Shown: positions 10,100 through 40,677, counted from the first letter of the stretch. The stretch: DNA of 64,000 nucleotides from an uncultured Actinomycetes bacterium (GCA_947085535.1 CAMTWV010000002.1:94199-158198), one strand, 5' to 3'. Notes: a model not told the origin generated them from the sequence alone. Program-made: numbers and translations.

Positions 10100-12196
10100 C
10101 TAAGCTTTATTTGTATCTTCTACTAGTGCAAGGCTAGTTCGGTTTGTCTTTTTATCAAATTCAATGACTTCAACGAGAATTTTATCCCCTGCTTTAACAA
10201 CATCTTCAACAGCCCTTATCCTTTGGCGTGATAGTTTAGAGATATGAACCAACCCCTCTTTCCCGGGAAATATTTCAACGAATGCGCCAAAAGCAGTTGT
10301 TTTGGTGACCGTTCCAAGATATTTTTCACCAACCGCTGGTTCTTTTATTATGCTTTCAACAATTTGTCGAGCGCGCGCTCCATTTATTACGTTTTTAGAA
10401 GCAATATAGACGGTTCCATCGTCTTCGATATCTATGGAGACCCCGGTCTCTTCAATTATGCCTCTTATTATTTTTCCTCCTGGTCCAATTAATTCACCGA
10501 TTTTATCTTTCGCCACTTTTAAAATGTAGATTTGCGGAGCGAATTCAGAAATTTTCTCTCGAGGTGTGGCAATTGCTTCATTCATTTTTTCAAGGATAAA
10601 CAGTCGGGCTCGTTTAGCCTGCTCAAGTGCTTCTTTTAGTATCTCTTTTTTGATACCGGCTATCTTTAAATCCATTTGAAGTGCGGTCACGCCTTTAGTT
10701 GTTCCAGCAACCTTAAAATCCATATCGCCAAGAGCGTCCTCCATGCCTAAAATATCAGTTAAGATAGCATGTTTGTCGCCTTCAACTACAAGACCCATGG
10801 CAATACCACCAACATTTTCCCGAATAGGAACCCCGGCATCCATTAAAGCCATACTGCCTGCGCAGACAGAAGCCATTGAGGTTGAGCCGTTAGATTCCAG
10901 AGCTTCAGCAACCAATCTAATTGTATAGGGAAATTCAACTTCATCTGGAATGAGTGGAAGCAGAGCCCTTTCCGCCAAAGCACCGTGTCCAATTTCCCGT
11001 CTCCTTGGACCACGCAACACACCAGTATCTCCTGTTGAAAAAGGTGGGAAATTATAGTGGTGTATAAATCGCTTTGACTCTTCAGTACCAATGCTGTCGA
11101 TTCTTTGTTCATCGCTTAAAGTTCCAAGCGTTACAGTGCTTAAAACTTGAGTTTGTCCCCGAGTGAAAATTGCAGAGCCATGAGGACGTGGCAAAGGATG
11201 AATCAGACACGAAATTTGCCTGATTTCATCAGTTTTCCTGCCATCAGCTCTCTTATTTTCTTCTAAAATCATTCGCCTAATTTCTTCTTTCTGAATTTTT
11301 TCCAGCGTTTGAACAATATAGCGCTCTTTTCCTTCCAGCATGGTTGTAATTCGTTCAACCGTTTCATCTTCAACTAAAGCAAGTGTTTCTTCTCGCTCCA
11401 GTTTGTCTGGATTTTTTAAGGCTTCTCTGAGTTTATCCGTTGCATGTTCGCGCACTTTATATTCAACTTCGCCCGGGATGGTAATTATTTTGGGCTCCTT
11501 TTTTTGGGTGCCAACCTGAGTTTGGAACTTTTCCTGAAAGTTAATTAACTCTACGATGTACTTATGAGCTTCTTCAAGAGCCTGCATGGTTTCTTCTTCA
11601 GATATTTCATTTAATCCGGCTTCAACCATCAGGATTCCTTCACGGTTGCCGGCAACAGTGACATCTATGTCGCTTTGTTCTAACTCTTGAAAAGTGGGGT
11701 TGACCACCCAGCGATTATCGCACCGACCTATTCGCACAGCGCCTATTGGACCTAAAAAGGGAATATCGGAAATAGAAAGCGCAGCTGAAGCACCTATTAT
11801 AGCAAGCACATCGGGTGGGTTTACCTGGTCAACTGATAAAATACTCGCTATTACTTGAACTTCATTTCGATAACCTTTAGGAAAAGATGGGCGTATCGAC
11901 CTGTCAGTTAATCGGGCGGTTAAGATTGATTTTTCACTAGGTCGCCCTTCACGCTTAATGTAGCCGCCGGGAATTTTTCCTGCAGCATACATTTTTTCTT
12001 CTACATCAACGGTTAATGGAAAAAAATCCGTACCTTCAAGTGGTTTATCTGAAGCTGTAGCTGCTGCTAAAACTACTGTGTCTTCGCATCTGACTAAGAC
12101 ACTTCCGTTTGCCTGTCGGGCAAGTATTCCTGATTCAATAGAAATAGTCTTCCCGCCCAGCAAAATTTCTTCTTTAACAGTGTTTTTTAAATACAT
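10100..12196 (-). CDS. pnp: Polyribonucleotide nucleotidyltransferase (PNPase)
   Basis: 698 aa. Two RNase PH domains plus KH and S1 domains. Confidence 0.97.
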   Translation of the reverse strand: MYLKNTVKEEILLGGKTISIESGILARQANGSVLVRCEDTVVLAAATASDKPLEGTDFFPLTVDVEEKMYAAGKIPGGYIKREGRPSEKSILTARLTDRSIRPSFPKGYRNEVQVIASILSVDQVNPPDVLAIIGASAALSISDIPFLGPIGAVRIGRCDNRWVVNPTFQELEQSDIDVTVAGNREGILMVEAGLNEISEEETMQALEEAHKYIVELINFQEKFQTQVGTQKKEPKIITIPGEVEYKVREHATDKLREALKNPDKLEREETLALVEDETVERITTMLEGKERYIVQTLEKIQKEEIRRMILEENKRADGRKTDEIRQISCLIHPLPRPHGSAIFTRGQTQVLSTVTLGTLSDEQRIDSIGTEESKRFIHHYNFPPFSTGDTGVLRGPRRREIGHGALAERALLPLIPDEVEFPYTIRLVAEALESNGSTSMASVCAGSMALMDAGVPIRENVGGIAMGLVVEGDKHAILTDILGMEDALGDMDFKVAGTTKGVTALQMDLKIAGIKKEILKEALEQAKRARLFILEKMNEAIATPREKISEFAPQIYILKVAKDKIGELIGPGGKIIRGIIEETGVSIDIEDDGTVYIASKNVINGARARQIVESIIKEPAVGEKYLGTVTKTTAFGAFVEIFPGKEGLVHISKLSRQRIRAVEDVVKAGDKILVEVIEFDKKTNRTSLALVEDTNKA

Positions 12197-12229: not shown

Positions 12230-12499
12230 TTATCCGCGCAAACCTAATTTTTTAATTACATCATTGTATCTTTTAGGGTCGATTTTTTTGATGTAAGCCA
12301 AAAGACTTCTTCTCTGCCCCACCATTTTAAGTAATCCGTGTCTTGAGCTATTATCTTTTTTGTGGATTTTGAAGTGGCTGGCTAATTTGTCGATTTTTTT
12401 TGTGAGAATTGCAATTTGGACTTCTGGGGAACCAGTATCAGTTGTATGCAGCTTAAAATCGTTAATAATCTTTTCTTTTTCGTCCTTAGCTAAAGACAT
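12230..12499 (-). CDS. rpsO: 30S ribosomal protein S15
   Basis: 89 aa. [25 protein letters not shown] signature. Confidence 0.97.
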
Positions 12500-12603
12500 T
12501 TTTTCACCTCCCCTTTTTAATCCCGCTTACCAAGAATGCGTTGGTGATTCGCGATCCCAGTGAAACGGTGAAACAGCTTGTTGCCGCTCCATTGTAAAAA
12601 ATA
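12500..12603 (-). promoter_or_regulatory. rpsO 5' leader, locally GC-rich; possible S15 autoregulatory structure
   Basis: About 100 nt between the predicted -10 box and the GGAGGTG RBS. It contains tandem GTTTCAC x2 and small stems (CCAA..TTGG, TCGCGA palindrome). S15 translational autoregulation through its own leader is known in several phyla. I did not derive a fold. Confidence 0.3.
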
Positions 12604-12632
12604 ATGATACCATAGGTTGAAATTGATGTAAA
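12604..12632 (-). promoter_or_regulatory. Putative sigma-70 promoter of rpsO
   Basis: Minus strand reads TTTACA (12627-12632), a 17-nt spacer, then TGG-TATCAT (extended -10, 12604-12612). Confidence 0.4.
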
Positions 12633-12640
12633 ATTCAACC
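12615..12640. promoter_or_regulatory. Inverted repeat GGTTGAA-N12-TTCAACC spanning the rpsO -35 box
   Basis: Perfect 7-bp arms at 12615-12621 and 12634-12640. Candidate operator in the divergent control region. Confidence 0.35.
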
Positions 12641-12668
12641 AAAATAGACAAGAAAAAATAGACAAGAA
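12641..12668. promoter_or_regulatory. Perfect tandem 14-bp direct repeat (AAAATAGACAAGAA x2), candidate operator
   Basis: 12641-12654 and 12655-12668 are identical. The repeat lies 16 nt upstream of the -35 box of the cassette promoter. Confidence 0.45.
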
Positions 12669-12684
12669 ATTTTTGCTATCTTTA

Positions 12685-12713
12685 TTTACAAAATTGAGTT
12701 TATAAAATATATT
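12685..12713 (+). promoter_or_regulatory. Putative sigma-70 promoter of the HTH-ImmA-membrane cassette
   Basis: TTTACA (12685-12690), a 17-nt spacer, TATATT (12708-12713). AGGAGG RBS lies 6 nt before the ATG at 12753. Confidence 0.45.
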
Positions 12714-12752
12714 TAAAGTCAGTAACGAAATTAAATTAAAAGGAGGATTAAA

Positions 12753-13142
12753 ATGGCAAGTATTGACGAAAAGTTGAGATTTTTATTTACCACACATTTA
12801 AGCCCTGACGGAGATGAATACACCTACGAGGAAGTTGCTCAAGGAACCGGAGGTGTAATTTCACCAAGTTATGTCTGGAATCTCCGAAATGGGAAGAAGC
12901 TGAATCCAAGCCGGTCTAAGATGGAAATACTGGCAAAATTCTTCGATGTGTCACCTTCCTACTTCTTTGATGAGGAAGACGCTCTAAAGAAAAGCTTAAG
13001 CATTGATACAAGAATCGTGAGAGCAATTGAAGACCCAGTGGTAAGAGACATTGCTTTGCGGGCAATGGACTTAAGCGACAGAAACAAAGAGTTTATTTTA
13101 GCTATGGTTGATAAAGCGAAAGAGTTAGTTGAGGAAAAATAG
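12753..13142 (+). CDS. XRE-family HTH regulator with EspR-like architecture
   Basis: 129 aa. The pattern KLRFLFTT..PDG.EYTYEEVA....ISPSYVWNLRNGKKLNPSRSKMEILAKFFDVSPSYFFDEE plus a C-terminal helical block (VRDIALRAMDLSD..) parallels EspR as I remember it (RLNRLFDTV..PGRGPHTSAEV..MSAPYLSQLRSGNRTNPS..MAALANFF..AAYFTDDE). Confidence 0.8.
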   Translation: MASIDEKLRFLFTTHLSPDGDEYTYEEVAQGTGGVISPSYVWNLRNGKKLNPSRSKMEILAKFFDVSPSYFFDEEDALKKSLSIDTRIVRAIEDPVVRDIALRAMDLSDRNKEFILAMVDKAKELVEEK

Positions 13143-13660
13143 TGCTCAACCAGAGCAAGCTTAGAAAAAAGGTTAATAAATTGCTAAAAGAATTGAATTT
13201 TGAAGGAAGTTTTGATTCTTTTAGGTTTGTTGAGAAACTCGGGGAGCAATTAAACTTAAAGATAAAACTCCAATCTGTTCCCATGCCGCCCGGTTTTTTT
13301 GGCTTCTGGAGTTTAATCAATGACTGTCATGTCATTCTTTATCGGGCAAATACTTCTTGGTTTCATCAGCAACAAATTATCTTCCATGAATGCGGGCATA
13401 TTTGTTTAGGCCATCATTCAGGAAGCATTGAAAAGTTTTTAAAAAGAGAAATTCTCTACTCCGAGCCCGAGGAGCAAGAAGCAGAAACTTTTGCCACACT
13501 TCTTCTATGTAATGCTATAACTCAGGGATTGACTGAGCAAGGTATTTCTCTAAGCCAATATTATAACCAAAACAGTTCTTTTTACAACGAGTGTCCCCAG
13601 GATGTAATTTCAATGCAGGATTTTATGCTTCAATTAAAAGAAGTAATGGAAATGAGGTGA
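13142..13660 (+). CDS. ImmA/IrrE-family (COG2856) zinc metallopeptidase
   Basis: 172 aa. HExxH motif in FHECGHICLGHH and downstream EQEAETFA (the E.EA..FA motif of the family). The GTG start overlaps the upstream stop (TAGTG), implying translational coupling. Confidence 0.8.
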   Translation: MLNQSKLRKKVNKLLKELNFEGSFDSFRFVEKLGEQLNLKIKLQSVPMPPGFFGFWSLINDCHVILYRANTSWFHQQQIIFHECGHICLGHHSGSIEKFLKREILYSEPEEQEAETFATLLLCNAITQGLTEQGISLSQYYNQNSSFYNECPQDVISMQDFMLQLKEVMEMR

Positions 13661-13670
13661 GGTAACTCCC

Positions 13671-14960
13671 TTGCTTTATTACTTAGATTACCTTTTTCTT
13701 ATGCTCTTTTGGACTTGTACTTTGTATGCGCTTAAAGCTTATTATGTAAATCCACGTGATTCGAAGAATAAGCATGTTTTTTTGGTTTTTTTATTTGCTT
13801 CTATTGCTTTTACCTTTGCCGCACCCATTATTGCTCAAAAATTCAATAAGTTTTTGGGAATTAGCAGCATCAGTCGACCAATCGAGAATATCTCGAGCCT
13901 TATAGCTCTTTACTTTGGCTACCTTTTTTTTACGGATTTTGCTCCTAAAAAAAAGAAAAGAATTCCATGGCTTACTTTCTATCTTTTTTTGGTTACTGTA
14001 GCTCTAATTTCAATTTTTTCCCTGTTTTTGTCCAAACCTCAGCTTGAACCAATTTTTTTGGGTGAGGACACAAGAAATTTATCTGTTTTCATTTACAGTT
14101 TAGTTCTTCAGTCCCTTTTTCTCCCCCTTTTTGCTATTTATGCTTTAAATTTTTATAGATATGCTCGCCTGGTCAAAGAGCAAGCAACAAGAGTCAGACT
14201 TTATTCTTTATCGATAGGTTGTTTAATGGGCGCTTCGGGTCGCATTCTTGAACTCGTTTACTGGTTTGATATGCGGTATTTTGCTTATCTAAAGTTTTTC
14301 GGATTCTCTGCGGTTATTAGAATAATCAATTTATTTATGGTTTTATTTCTTTACGCTGGTTTTATAATGCCTGCTTTTTTAAGGAAAATTGTAGAGTCGT
14401 TTGGCGAACTGTTAGGATTGCGTCGAACTCGATATAATTTGATTTCCTTGCTTGCTTTAATTAACGACGCCCGTTCTTTTCTTCATTCTGATAATGAAAT
14501 GATTAATTATGTGCGGCGACTGTGCGAAAAATTTTTCTTAAGCTTAGAGGAGACAGCGCAGGCGGTAGAAAGTGCTCGGATAATTTCTGCTCTGGCTGGA
14601 AAAACAGATCAAAATTCAACTATGGAGTCTGCTCAGGTTTTTCATAGCGCTGCCAAGTATGCAGCGGCTGCCTTTGCTGAAGAAATTAAGTTTTATGACC
14701 AGGTTTATAAGAATATTTTGTATGCCAAGGAAAGGTATGACGGAAAGGATGCTATTTCTGACTTAAGTGGGGATAAATTACCAATGGGCTCACGCATTAT
14801 AAAAGTGGTTGATTGCTATTTCAATTCAAATCTTTTTCCCTTCGAAGCAGTCAAAGTTTTAAAGAAAGGTGCGAATAAAGAATTTGATCCCGAAGTAATA
14901 AAAGCTTTTATTGAAATACTCGAGGAAGAAAAAAACCTCAATCTCTTAAGATCTTCTTAG
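13671..14960 (+). CDS. Polytopic (~7 TM) membrane protein with a C-terminal degenerate HD-GYP-like domain
   Basis: 429 aa. TTG start 8 nt after GAGGTGAGG. About 7 hydrophobic helices in residues 1-236. The C-terminus AKERYDGKDAIS..LPMGSRIIKVVD..FDPEVIKAFIEIL aligns to the HD-GYP consensus HHERxDGxGYP..P.gaRI..vaD..FDP.lv.aF, but HD, HH and GYP are all substituted. Confidence 0.6.
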   Translation: MLYYLDYLFLMLFWTCTLYALKAYYVNPRDSKNKHVFLVFLFASIAFTFAAPIIAQKFNKFLGISSISRPIENISSLIALYFGYLFFTDFAPKKKKRIPWLTFYLFLVTVALISIFSLFLSKPQLEPIFLGEDTRNLSVFIYSLVLQSLFLPLFAIYALNFYRYARLVKEQATRVRLYSLSIGCLMGASGRILELVYWFDMRYFAYLKFFGFSAVIRIINLFMVLFLYAGFIMPAFLRKIVESFGELLGLRRTRYNLISLLALINDARSFLHSDNEMINYVRRLCEKFFLSLEETAQAVESARIISALAGKTDQNSTMESAQVFHSAAKYAAAAFAEEIKFYDQVYKNILYAKERYDGKDAISDLSGDKLPMGSRIIKVVDCYFNSNLFPFEAVKVLKKGANKEFDPEVIKAFIEILEEEKNLNLLRSS

Positions 14961-15864
14961 CTTTTTTAATATCTTCATGTATCTCTTCTATTAGTTGTTT
15001 CTCATCTTCAAACATTTTAATATCTCGAACTCTTTCTCTTATTTCGAGTTCAACTGGCTTTCCATATAAATTCTGGTTAAATCTAAAAATATGAGCCTCA
15101 ATGTGTCTTTTTAAGATACCAAAAGTTGGACTCTCTCCTATGTGAATAACACACGGGTTTTTTTCAGCGTTATACCAAAAAAAGCCAGCATAGACTCCTT
15201 TTTTGGGAACAGAAGCTTTATCGGGTGTTTTTATGTTAGCGGTAGGAAGTCCTAATTTTGAGTGAGCAATTCCTGTTCCTTTGATAACTTTCCCCGTAAT
15301 TCTTGGCCAGTGCCCGAGCAAACTTTTTGCTTTCTTAATATCCCCTGCTCTAATATGGTGTCTTATATTGCTGCTGCTGACCAATTCTTCCTCCAGATAC
15401 AGGAATGGTACGATTTTAGTTCCAAAACCCGTCTTTTTTTCGTAACCAATTAAGAAATCATGATCTCCTTTTGCGCCTTTTCCAAAATGAAAGTCCTCGC
15501 CTACCACTAAACTTGAGGCTTTAAGTTTTTTAAGGACTATTTCGTTAAGGAATTTTTCAGGGCTTAAGTTAGCTAACCGTTTGTTAAATTTAAGGATGAG
15601 TAAATAATCGACACCTAATTCTTCTATTAACTCTGCTTTTAAATGGGTGGCTGTCAAAATGGGGGGATGACTGCCTGGTTTAAGAACTTCGAGCGGATGA
15701 GGCTCAAAAGTAATAACAATGCTTTTGGCTCCACTTATTTTTGCAGTTTCTACCGCGGTTTTAATGATTTTTTGGTGCCCTTTATGAACACCATCAAAAA
15801 CGCCGATGGTGACAACGCTTTTTTCTATGAATGGCATGTCTTTAAGTTCTCTTATAATTTCCAT
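14938..15864 (-). CDS. ribF: Bifunctional riboflavin kinase / FMN adenylyltransferase
   Basis: 308 aa. GVFDGVHKGHQ motif and a C-terminal riboflavin kinase domain. Its 3' end overlaps the convergent membrane-protein gene by 23 nt. Confidence 0.92.
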   Translation of the reverse strand: MEIIRELKDMPFIEKSVVTIGVFDGVHKGHQKIIKTAVETAKISGAKSIVITFEPHPLEVLKPGSHPPILTATHLKAELIEELGVDYLLILKFNKRLANLSPEKFLNEIVLKKLKASSLVVGEDFHFGKGAKGDHDFLIGYEKKTGFGTKIVPFLYLEEELVSSSNIRHHIRAGDIKKAKSLLGHWPRITGKVIKGTGIAHSKLGLPTANIKTPDKASVPKKGVYAGFFWYNAEKNPCVIHIGESPTFGILKRHIEAHIFRFNQNLYGKPVELEIRERVRDIKMFEDEKQLIEEIHEDIKKAKKILRD

Positions 15865-39975: not shown

Positions 39976-40035
39976 GTAAAGCTGAGCTATGTCGCTATGT
40001 CGAGAGACGATTGAAATAAAGAAGGCGGATAAAAA

Positions 40036-40266
40036 TCAATCGATAATTTCAACAATTGCTCTTTTGTTTTCTTTAGCTGCGGCAGCTCCCACAATTACTC
40101 TAAGGGCTTTAGCTATCCTTCCCTCTTTACCGATTACTTTACCAATGTCGTCGGGAGCAACTTTTAATTGCAAAATGACAGATTTCGCACCTTCTACTAT
40201 GCTAACATCAACTTCCTCGGGAGTGTCCACAAGCGCTCGGGCTAACGTCTCTAACAGTTCTTTCAA
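40036..40266 (-). CDS. ylqC: KH-domain RNA-binding protein (YlqC family)
   Basis: 76 aa. VIGKEGRIAKALR GxxG motif, at the conserved position after rpsP. Confidence 0.88.
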   Translation of the reverse strand: MKELLETLARALVDTPEEVDVSIVEGAKSVILQLKVAPDDIGKVIGKEGRIAKALRVIVGAAAAKENKRAIVEIID

Positions 40267-40320
40267 CTCAGCACCTCCTATTCTTTCTCAACGGGTTTCG
40301 CTTTGGTTGACGCCTTGGAT

Positions 40321-40677
40321 TTAGACGGTTTTTTTTGCCTCAACAGTCTTTTTTGCTGGAGCTTTTTTAGCGGTAACTTTTTCTTCTGGCAACTTTTCTT
40401 TTGACTCTACTTTCTTTTCTACTTTTTTTGTAGGAAGAGCTATATTTGCAATTTTAAGCAGCTTTTCCACTGTATTAGTAGGTTTCGCTCCTTGCGAAAG
40501 CCATAATAACGCTCTTTCTTCATCCATTTTCACAAAGGAGGGTTCTTGCCTCGGATCATATTGACCAATGATTTCGATAAATCTACCATCTCTCGGCATC
40601 CGAGAATCTGCTATAACAACACGGTAAAATGGCTTATTCTTGCTGCCCCCTCTGCTTAATCTGATTTTGACTGCCAA
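40321..40677 (-). CDS. rpsP: 30S ribosomal protein S16 with a Lys/Ala/Glu-rich C-terminal tail
   Basis: [22 protein letters not shown]-terminus. The last ~37 aa are the low-complexity K/E/A tail. Confidence 0.95.

Follow-up and report, generated by a model that had tools for sequence, protein, structure and literature searches.

A conserved three-gene operon that joins an EspR-like regulator and a probable M78-type peptidase to a seven-helix protein with a degenerate HD-GYP domain at the ribF-rpsO junction of an actinobacterial genome

Repressor-cleaving M78 proteases such as ImmA, IrrE, and CapP control mobile elements, radiation resistance, and phage defense, and the logic shared by the CapH/CapP and Deinococcus DdrO/IrrE pairs is that an HExxH peptidase cleaves an oligomeric XRE repressor and genes are thereby induced. 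In the ImmR/ImmA pair of the Bacillus subtilis element ICEBs1, as with the repressor and ImmA of phage phi105, the gene for the XRE repressor stands directly ahead of, and in one operon with, the gene for a single-domain COG2856/M78 peptidase of ~170 amino acids that cleaves the repressor, and ImmA requires an outside activator, either RapI or the DNA-damage pathway. A membrane sensor that controls a zinc protease, which removes a repressor and so induces an operon, is found in BlaR1/BlaI and MecR1/MecI. For the minimal, single-domain M78 proteases, the locus described here offers a concrete candidate for the missing input in the form of a constant, receptor-shaped partner. It is a cassette of three genes in a 64-kb stretch of DNA (the window, 64,000 nucleotides analyzed in full; GCA_947085535.1, CAMTWV010000002.1:94199-158198) from an uncultured Actinomycetes bacterium, and it encodes, in order, an EspR-like XRE protein with a helix-turn-helix (HTH) domain (gene 1), a putative M78-type zinc peptidase (gene 2), and a membrane protein predicted to have seven transmembrane helices (7TM) and a degenerate HD-GYP domain (gene 3). 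The order of the first two genes and the size of the peptidase match those of ImmR/ImmA.

The three genes form a genuine and ancient module that is common across the Actinomycetota; it is partly named in databases, and its function is undescribed in the searchable literature. An earlier reading of the window (the sequence-only reading) had proposed three coupled plus-strand genes, and its coordinates for the cassette, the overlap and gap between the genes, and the overlap with ribF all agree with ours (Table 1). At the ATAGTG junction, a single base belongs both to the TAG that ends gene 1 and to the GTG that begins gene 2; the spacer between genes 2 and 3 is 10 nt long with the ribosome-binding site GAGGTGAGG, and the 3' end of gene 3 overlaps the convergent ribF gene by 23 nt. 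The start codon assigned to gene 3 is supported because homologs open with the identical N-terminus, MLYYLD. In all seven independent loci of the gene 3 family with upstream sequence, the order and strand of the HTH, peptidase, and membrane protein genes are kept, with a ~129-aa EspR-like HTH protein followed by an HExxH protein of 161 to 185 aa, and this holds with gene 3 identity down to 24% and a genomic context that is different at each locus. The divergent neighbor of the trio, rpsO in the window, is different in every relative. An attempt to refute the association by finding gene 3 homologs apart from the HTH/peptidase pair thus failed in seven of seven informative loci, and the conservation also rules out a reading of the cassette as chance open reading frames (ORFs). 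The trio is a three-gene operon that is both conserved and horizontally mobile.

Across 1.84 billion representatives, an exhaustive search by profile recovered only about ten proteins that have the complete gene 3 architecture, and below this family ranked generic HD-GYP domains and two actinobacterial proteins of high guanine-plus-cytosine (GC) content that match the membrane part only. A scan of genome contigs returned almost entirely generic HD-GYP proteins and one true family member (L013, the same place as L001, below). The two high-GC proteins carry Pfam DUF6545, and their NCBIfam name is "MAB_1171c family putative transporter" (NF042915). Alignment by hhalign of gene 3 with one DUF6545 protein covers residues 3-313 with a probability of 98.9%, and at locus L173 the two upstream genes are, by the same method, homologs of genes 1 and 2 (E 7e-32 and 1e-21, respectively). 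Because homology is clear but the curated cut-off is missed (63.3 bits against a cut-off of 100 for NF042915, and no DUF6545 hit at E<=1), gene 3 is placed as a sister group to MAB_1171c/DUF6545 and not as a member. The DUF6545 proteins align only to the first part of the gene 3 HD-GYP domain, that is, to its first helices, and the family is likely of HD-GYP ancestry, as exposed by the gene 3 sister group.

The same three-gene order is present in six of seven high-GC loci of the DUF6545 type (L173, L174, L175, L176, L180, and L181); the seventh, from Streptomyces (L182), is a record without annotation and stands outside the six counted. At L176 the upstream 247-aa gene, which the record lists as hypothetical, is an HTH gene by Pfam. 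These loci come from Streptomyces and Amycolatopsis plasmids, a soil metagenome-assembled genome (MAG), and a phage-labelled Mycobacterium abscessus record. The last of these (L180, KC960489.1, "Mycobacterium phage Adler", UNVERIFIED_ORG) is a 95.7-kb circular M. abscessus record whose origin is in doubt, and its XRE-peptidase-DUF6545-P450 module lies next to a second XRE gene. The combination, which the sequence-only reading did not recognize as a described system, is not restricted to this genome; the window trio is a deep branch of a module of three or four genes that occurs in high-GC actinomycetes, and NCBI already names parts of that module. DUF6545 has no mention in the searchable literature, where MAB_1171c appears in one paper, a transposon screen in which the M. 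abscessus mutant had lower minimum inhibitory concentrations of cefoxitin and clarithromycin and ~50% less biofilm (PMC8707978). For the MAB_1171c/DUF6545 genes, this provides an initial hypothesis to work from, together with a likely evolutionary origin in 7TM-HD-GYP proteins.

The third gene of the module is constant and the fourth varies, a pattern that suggests a core regulatory part with cargo. A cytochrome P450 gene directly follows the trio at four loci (L174 5164-6342, L176 5198-6403, L181 4697-5902, and L180 5705-7120), with the DUF6545 and P450 coding regions overlapping in three and lying 3 nt apart in the fourth. Other loci have, in this position, a ketoacyl synthase (two loci), an FAD_binding_3 oxidoreductase, a PNP_UDP_1 protein, a PAP2-like protein, or no fourth gene; within the gene 3 family proper the list is ketoacyl synthase (the same two loci), FAD-dependent oxidoreductase, PNP_UDP_1 phosphorylase, or none. 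The beta-ketoacyl synthase genes lie 26-33 nt downstream on the same strand (L005, 1370-1819, and L008, 8664-9956), which hints at a link with lipid metabolism. At L009 (4034-8568, also seen at L010) the EspR-like HTH protein is doubled, with two repeats in 220 aa, the gene for the PNP_UDP_1 nucleoside phosphorylase overlaps the stop codon of gene 3, and an AAA_15/AAA_21 ATPase and a pP_pnuc_1 nuclease nearby give the locus the look of a defense island.

In the window, the cassette is an old insertion at the junction of ribF and rpsO in an Aquicultoria-type actinobacterial lineage. Two Actinomycetota MAGs with RibF 55% identical (L178 and L179) are colinear from rimP to dapB and have a ribF-rpsO gap of only 70 nt, which bears out the earlier proposal of an insertion. 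A gene 3 homolog sits at the same junction, convergent on ribF, both in a 96% relative (L002) and in a Candidatus Subteraquimicrobiales MAG with RibF 70% identical (L177). Because the junction is empty in the first two and occupied in the second two, the ~2.4 kb are an insertion older than the split of the 70% lineage, and that the cassette stayed put while RibF diverged to this extent suggests a host function rather than pure addiction. There is no clear GC signal of a compositional island (0.33-0.40 in the cassette vs 0.32-0.46 in the flanks), which fits an old insertion. In a metagenome scan with RibF, the relatives were at most 40% identical, and the ribF-rpsO gap was below 260 nt in 19 of 32 loci with both genes, so that adjacency of the pair is variable at this distance. 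A second MAG (L001/L003) carries a trio 50-69% identical at another site. There, the trio is flanked by toxin-antitoxin pairs of the PIN/MazE and PIN/RHH kinds (5804-6515 and 10487-11136) and an Rce1-like protease, and a tyrosine recombinase lies ~5 kb downstream.

The sequence-only reading had noted no integrase, phage, or conjugation gene nearby, and indeed no integrase, excisionase, or conjugation gene adjoins the cassette, whose flanks are housekeeping genes (rimP-nusA-infB-rbfA-truB-ribF and rpsO-pnp-M16-dapB). The window contains no tRNA gene and no Rfam family above threshold, and neither an RNA gene nor a tRNA integration site was found in it. The window trio lies outside any recognizable prophage or integrative and conjugative element (ICE), and gene 3 has no match in phage or plasmid collections. 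Distant relatives of the DUF6545 type are on actinomycete plasmids and in one phage-labelled record, where the trio has the look of cargo and not of a switch for the immunity of the element itself.

The gene 1 protein matches HTH_3 above the cut-off (26.7 bits vs 23, 5.6e-6), and its N-terminal HTH and C-terminal helical dimerization region both align with EspR (structures 3qf3, 3r1f, and 4ndw; E 5e-9) over residues 7-123, nearly full length. Its best match in PADLOC is capH (3.8e-8), and its orthologs in six other loci are 39-69% identical. It is presumed to be the repressor and the substrate of the protease. The gene 2 protein, which contains the motifs HECGH and EQEAETFA, matches the phage metalloprotease family phrog_87 (4.8e-9) and PADLOC capP (2.1e-6, only profile positions 3-112 of 242), and seven of eight orthologs match Peptidase_M78 (best 1.2e-7), though its own score is 19.2 bits against a cut-off of 22 (1.1e-3). 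In an alignment of 13 loci that range from low-GC, Aquicultoria-type MAGs to Streptomyces, residues H75, H82, E83, H86, H91, E111, A114, E115, and A118 are invariant; H82-E83-H86 form the HExxH motif, and the third zinc ligand likely lies within E111-x2-A114-E115. The active site is intact by these residues and the enzyme looks active. Gene 2 is thus best described as encoding a probable divergent M78 (ImmA/IrrE-type) zinc peptidase that consists of the peptidase domain only, with no room in its 172 aa for a linker and a GAF domain.

For gene 3, an AlphaFold2 (AF2) model built from 13 sequences (mean confidence, pLDDT, 82; an earlier model from five sequences, pLDDT 49, was discarded) has seven helices in the membrane, followed by a long linker helix and then a helical domain in the cytoplasm, and the charge distribution is consistent with an N-terminus outside and a C-terminus inside. 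The arrangement of the membrane helices resembles that of G protein-coupled receptors (GPCRs). Foldseek places HD-GYP domains at the top (fold matches 4r8z, 9rbz, 5z7c, and 4mcw), the nearest structures being phosphodiesterases for cyclic di-GMP (c-di-GMP) and cyclic GMP-AMP (cGAMP) and one HD-GYP domain with bound c-di-GMP, and HD_5 is matched at 31.1 bits (cut-off 27.2) over profile positions 65-170 of 170 only. Alignment with nine canonical HD-GYP domains reveals that HD is replaced by IS and HH by AK, and that GYP is absent; in the family as a whole, the first His, the HD pair, and the HH of HHExxDGxGYP are lost, and GYP is kept only in P0008. The domain has no metal-binding residue left and is catalytically dead, and the motifs ERYDG, PxGxRI, and FDPxV are kept. 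The most conserved residues of the gene 3 family fall in this cytoplasmic domain. The assignments made by the sequence-only reading for all three proteins (an EspR-like XRE protein, a peptidase of the ImmA/IrrE kind, and a protein of ~7 TM helices with an HD-GYP-like domain devoid of catalytic residues) are supported by these comparisons. In three high-scoring HD-GYP domains outside the gene 3 family (P0014, P0015, and P0016), the HD pair is replaced by QD, MD, or CD, and because of this, partial erosion of the HD-GYP site may be common in the nearest soluble relatives.

The interpretation we favor, which is tentative and held with somewhat less than even confidence, is that the cassette is an ImmR/ImmA-type derepression switch in which gene 3 acts as the sensor that gates gene 2. 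By analogy with the known pairs, the gene 1 protein would repress its own operon promoter through the upstream tandem repeats described below, and the gene 2 peptidase would cleave it to bring about derepression, as ImmA does with ImmR, IrrE with DdrO, and CapP with CapH. Because gene 2 lacks the GAF and linker sensor domains of IrrE and CapP, its input would come from gene 3, which would be a receptor-like membrane sensor of a membrane-borne signal (a lipid, a hydrophobic compound, or the state of the envelope), with the pseudo-HD-GYP domain holding or releasing the peptidase, or possibly binding a nucleotide. The output would be induction of the operon and, in relatives, also of the fourth gene, whose product (P450, FAD monooxygenase, ketoacyl synthase, or PAP2) would modify lipids or xenobiotics, and the cassette would amount to a split form of BlaR1/BlaI logic made of ImmR/ImmA parts. 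Gene 3 is preferred as the sensor because it stays constant where the fourth gene varies, because it is receptor-shaped, because conservation peaks in its cytoplasmic pseudo-enzyme, and because the fourth genes are oxygenases and lipid enzymes; in addition, the mutant phenotype of its relative MAB_1171c appears without phage (PMC8707978).

Several points weigh against a sensor-gated switch. The NCBI pipeline calls the middle gene "toxin" in Streptomyces (the RefSeq name on three plasmids); no NCBIfam model matches that gene or accounts for the name. Defense-island or toxin-antitoxin (TA) neighbors are present in four of seven contexts of the gene 3 family (PIN/MazE pairs; a KAP NTPase; AAA_15/AAA_21 with pP_pnuc_1; DUF87 with AAA_16). 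The phenotype of the MAB_1171c mutant could be a polar effect. The M78 score of gene 2 itself is below the Pfam cut-off, and comparison by sequence of gene 2 and its family profile with solved structures gave only noise. The resemblance of gene 3 to 7TM receptors may be one of generic helix-bundle topology. Finally, the window trio has no fourth gene, so that the switch would induce only itself, which fits gene 3 as the output.

A stronger form of the sensor-gated switch is that a receptor with a GPCR fold gates a soluble ImmA-type metalloprotease, which destroys an EspR-type repressor, with the dead HD-GYP domain as a coupling platform and with neither phosphorylation nor a second messenger. 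This would be a previously unrecognized kind of signaling, maybe widespread in the Actinomycetota, and we regard it as rather doubtful. If it were true, the DUF6545 "putative transporters" would represent the receptor in a more eroded state, the module would turn on lipid- and xenobiotic-modifying P450, monooxygenase, and ketoacyl synthase genes, and M. tuberculosis EspR could be the orphaned descendant of such a repressor.

The main rival, which is unlikely but the best placed of the alternatives, makes gene 3 a regulated payload: genes 1 and 2 would form a CapH/CapP- or ImmR/ImmA-type switch responsive to stress (DNA damage or phage), and gene 3 would be a silenced membrane effector that kills or arrests the cell or remodels the envelope, as in an abortive-infection or defense-like module. 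The capH and capP matches in PADLOC, the defense-type neighbors of four relatives, the position of gene 3 as the sole non-regulatory product in the window, and the movement of the module between sites, plasmids, and a phage-labelled record are consistent with this, and CapH/CapP-like pairs are known to control varied defense operons, some with transmembrane effectors. However, the described CapH/CapP-like pairs are divergent from a variable target operon, whereas the cassette has a third gene that points the same way, is translationally close, and stays invariant across very large distances, and gene 2 lacks the linker and GAF region with which CapP senses single-stranded DNA (ssDNA). Gene 3 itself has no PADLOC or PHROG match, and a 429-aa GPCR-like protein with a conserved pseudo-enzyme is unlike the short effectors of cyclic-oligonucleotide-based antiphage signaling systems (CBASS), which have one to four transmembrane helices. 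The fourth genes that recur encode oxygenases and lipid enzymes rather than defense enzymes, and the MAB_1171c phenotypes, again, arise in the absence of phage. Were the payload explanation true, the cassette would add a new membrane effector to CapH/CapP-like regulated systems.

Distinctly less probable, and overlapping with the sensor-gated switch, is that the degenerate HD-GYP domain is a dead-enzyme receptor for a cyclic nucleotide such as c-di-GMP or cGAMP, in which the 7TM part only anchors or oligomerizes the protein and the level of the messenger sets peptidase activity. The retained HD-GYP fold, the three motifs kept in it, and the identity of the nearest structures, one of them with c-di-GMP bound, all argue for such a receptor. 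The metal ligands of HD-GYP domains also hold the substrate phosphate in active enzymes, however, and in gene 3 they are all lost; moreover, the DUF6545 relatives retain only the first part of the domain yet have the same operon, and a nucleotide cyclase gene is linked to the trio in none of the loci seen. The least probable alternative is a three-component, TA-like addiction module with the COG2856 peptidase as toxin, the XRE protein as antitoxin, and the membrane protein as accessory, which draws on the prediction by Makarova et al. (2009) that Xre-COG2856 pairs are TA-like, with three-component versions proposed (PMC2701414), on the RefSeq label, and on a patchy genomic location that includes a site among PIN/MazE and PIN/RHH pairs, but against which stand the preference of that same paper for a peptidase that cleaves the Xre repressor over a classical toxin, the anti-repressor activity of the COG2856 proteins with a defined mechanism in the literature consulted (ImmA, IrrE, and CapP), the lack of a supporting model for the label, and the one chromosomal site held during RibF divergence. 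One pair of an Xre protein and a Zn-protease, from Brucella, has been classed as a TA system.

The spacer between rpsO and the cassette is 253 nt long and bears on the first step of the sensor-gated switch. The sequence-only reading had mentioned operator-like repeats, and two exact tandem copies of the 13-nt AAATAGACAAGAA with a partial inverted copy are seen there; exact copies occur nowhere else in the 64 kb. They are candidate operators for gene 1 and lie between two predicted -35 boxes that face apart, one for the cassette and one for rpsO. Both copies are present in the 96% relative (L002), where their retention says little because the whole region is nearly identical. The region has no more matches to the promoter consensus than shuffled sequence does. 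The insertion split rpsO from ribF, and for this reason rpsO-pnp appears to start from the shared spacer region, with a promoter-like site back to back with that of the cassette; because the tandem repeats lie between both -35 boxes, the cassette repressor could also affect expression of S15 and PNPase. The rpsO 5' leader (12443-12640, minus strand) has a stable fold (-38.5 kcal/mol, z -3.3) and matches the Rfam S15 leader below threshold (23.1 bits vs 39.5, E 0.019); it may serve in the autoregulation of S15 as a leader of an actinobacterial type for which there is no model. The sequence TACTATAG, found ~25-35 nt 5' of the start codon in L001, L008, and L009, was rejected as an operator motif shared among loci, as it is equally likely to be a -10 element and its sharing was judged non-significant by a rough estimate.

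The claim that the cassette is the only plus-strand coding block in 64 kb also survives. On its ribF side lie ribF, truB, a DHH phosphoesterase gene, rbfA, infB, nusA, and rimP, on its rpsO side rpsO, pnp, an M16 gene, and dapB, all on the minus strand, as are all the non-shadow ORFs of at least 110 aa outside the cassette in the whole window. A second plus-strand gene at 39989-40324 was rejected since it shadows a 76-aa minus-strand KH-domain gene, and because this remaining candidate is a shadow the cassette is left as the sole plus-strand block. The KH-domain ORF (40036-40266, minus strand) lies between the apparent rpsP and rimM genes and is below the usual ORF-length cut-offs, and its DNA is also covered by the longer, spurious plus-strand ORF.

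Table 1. Positions in the window of the cassette, its predicted signals, and the adjoining genes
Feature	Position	Strand	Description
Gene 1	12753-13142	+	129 aa, ATG start
Gene 2	13142-13660	+	172 aa, GTG start
Gene 3	13671-14960	+	429 aa, TTG start; stop codon 14958-14960
Gene 3, residues 1-232	13671-14366	+	Seven-helix membrane domain, GPCR-like arrangement; predicted N-terminus outside, C-terminus inside
Gene 3, residues 235-429	14373-14957	+	Long linker helix (235-270) and cytoplasmic pseudo-HD-GYP domain
Gene 1 ribosome-binding site	12740-12746	+	AAGGAGG
Predicted sigma-70-type cassette promoter	12685-12713	+	TTTACA, 17 nt, TATATT; consensus match only
Candidate operator	12642-12687	+	AAATAGACAAGAA, tandem exact copies at 12642-12654 and 12656-12668; partial inverted copy at ~12673-12687
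rpsO promoter-like site	12632-12604	-	TTTACA, 17 nt, TGnTATCAT; back to back with cassette promoter
rpsO	12230-12499	-	pnp on same flank
ribF	14938-15864	-	Convergent with gene 3

Among the known systems, the cassette appears to share the repressor-peptidase core of ImmR/ImmA and, in the window, is part of neither an ICE nor a prophage. It differs from the ICEBs1 locus in having no adjacent integrase, excisionase, or conjugation genes and no tRNA genes in the window, in the EspR type of gene 1, and in the lack of a conserved divergent target operon, and the third position, where ICEBs1 has int, is occupied here by the 7TM/pseudo-HD-GYP gene. Nor is it CapH/CapP, because the domain architecture and the orientation both differ: CapP and IrrE are three-domain proteins (peptidase, HTH-like linker, and GAF) that themselves sense ssDNA or damage, in contrast with the lone peptidase domain of gene 2, and capH/capP are divergent from a variable defense operon, in contrast with the co-directional genes and constant third gene of the cassette, to which no known defense gene is attached in the window. 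EspR (Rv3849) of Mycobacterium tuberculosis, to which gene 1 aligns over almost its full length, is, according to PDB titles, studied as a stand-alone, nucleoid-associated ESX-1 regulator, unlike the operon-bound gene 1. The likeness to BlaR1/BlaI is one of working only; there, sensor and protease are one polypeptide of the M56 family and BlaI is a winged-helix protein, and no homology of genes 1-3 to BlaR1/BlaI or MecR1/MecI was detected. With receptors of the 7TMR-HD/PgpH type, gene 3 has in common a 7TM module followed by a cytoplasmic HD-superfamily domain, and it differs in that this domain belongs to the HD-GYP type, with all catalytic residues lost, and in that no Pfam 7TM receptor family matches gene 3 at E<=1. 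Degenerate HD-GYP proteins without GYP exist elsewhere, as in HdgB of Streptomyces (PMC6205966). Neither for them nor for 7TMR-HD/PgpH receptors is an operon shared with a repressor/peptidase pair described. The gene 3 product is not an active HD-GYP enzyme, and curated cut-offs place it outside MAB_1171c/DUF6545. The MAB_1171c/DUF6545 operons are nonetheless homologous in all three proteins and have the same gene order; gene 3 keeps a complete, dead HD-GYP fold where theirs aligns to the first helices only, the high-GC versions usually add a cytochrome P450 that the window trio does not have, and the modeled fold of gene 3 lends no support to the "transporter" label of that family.

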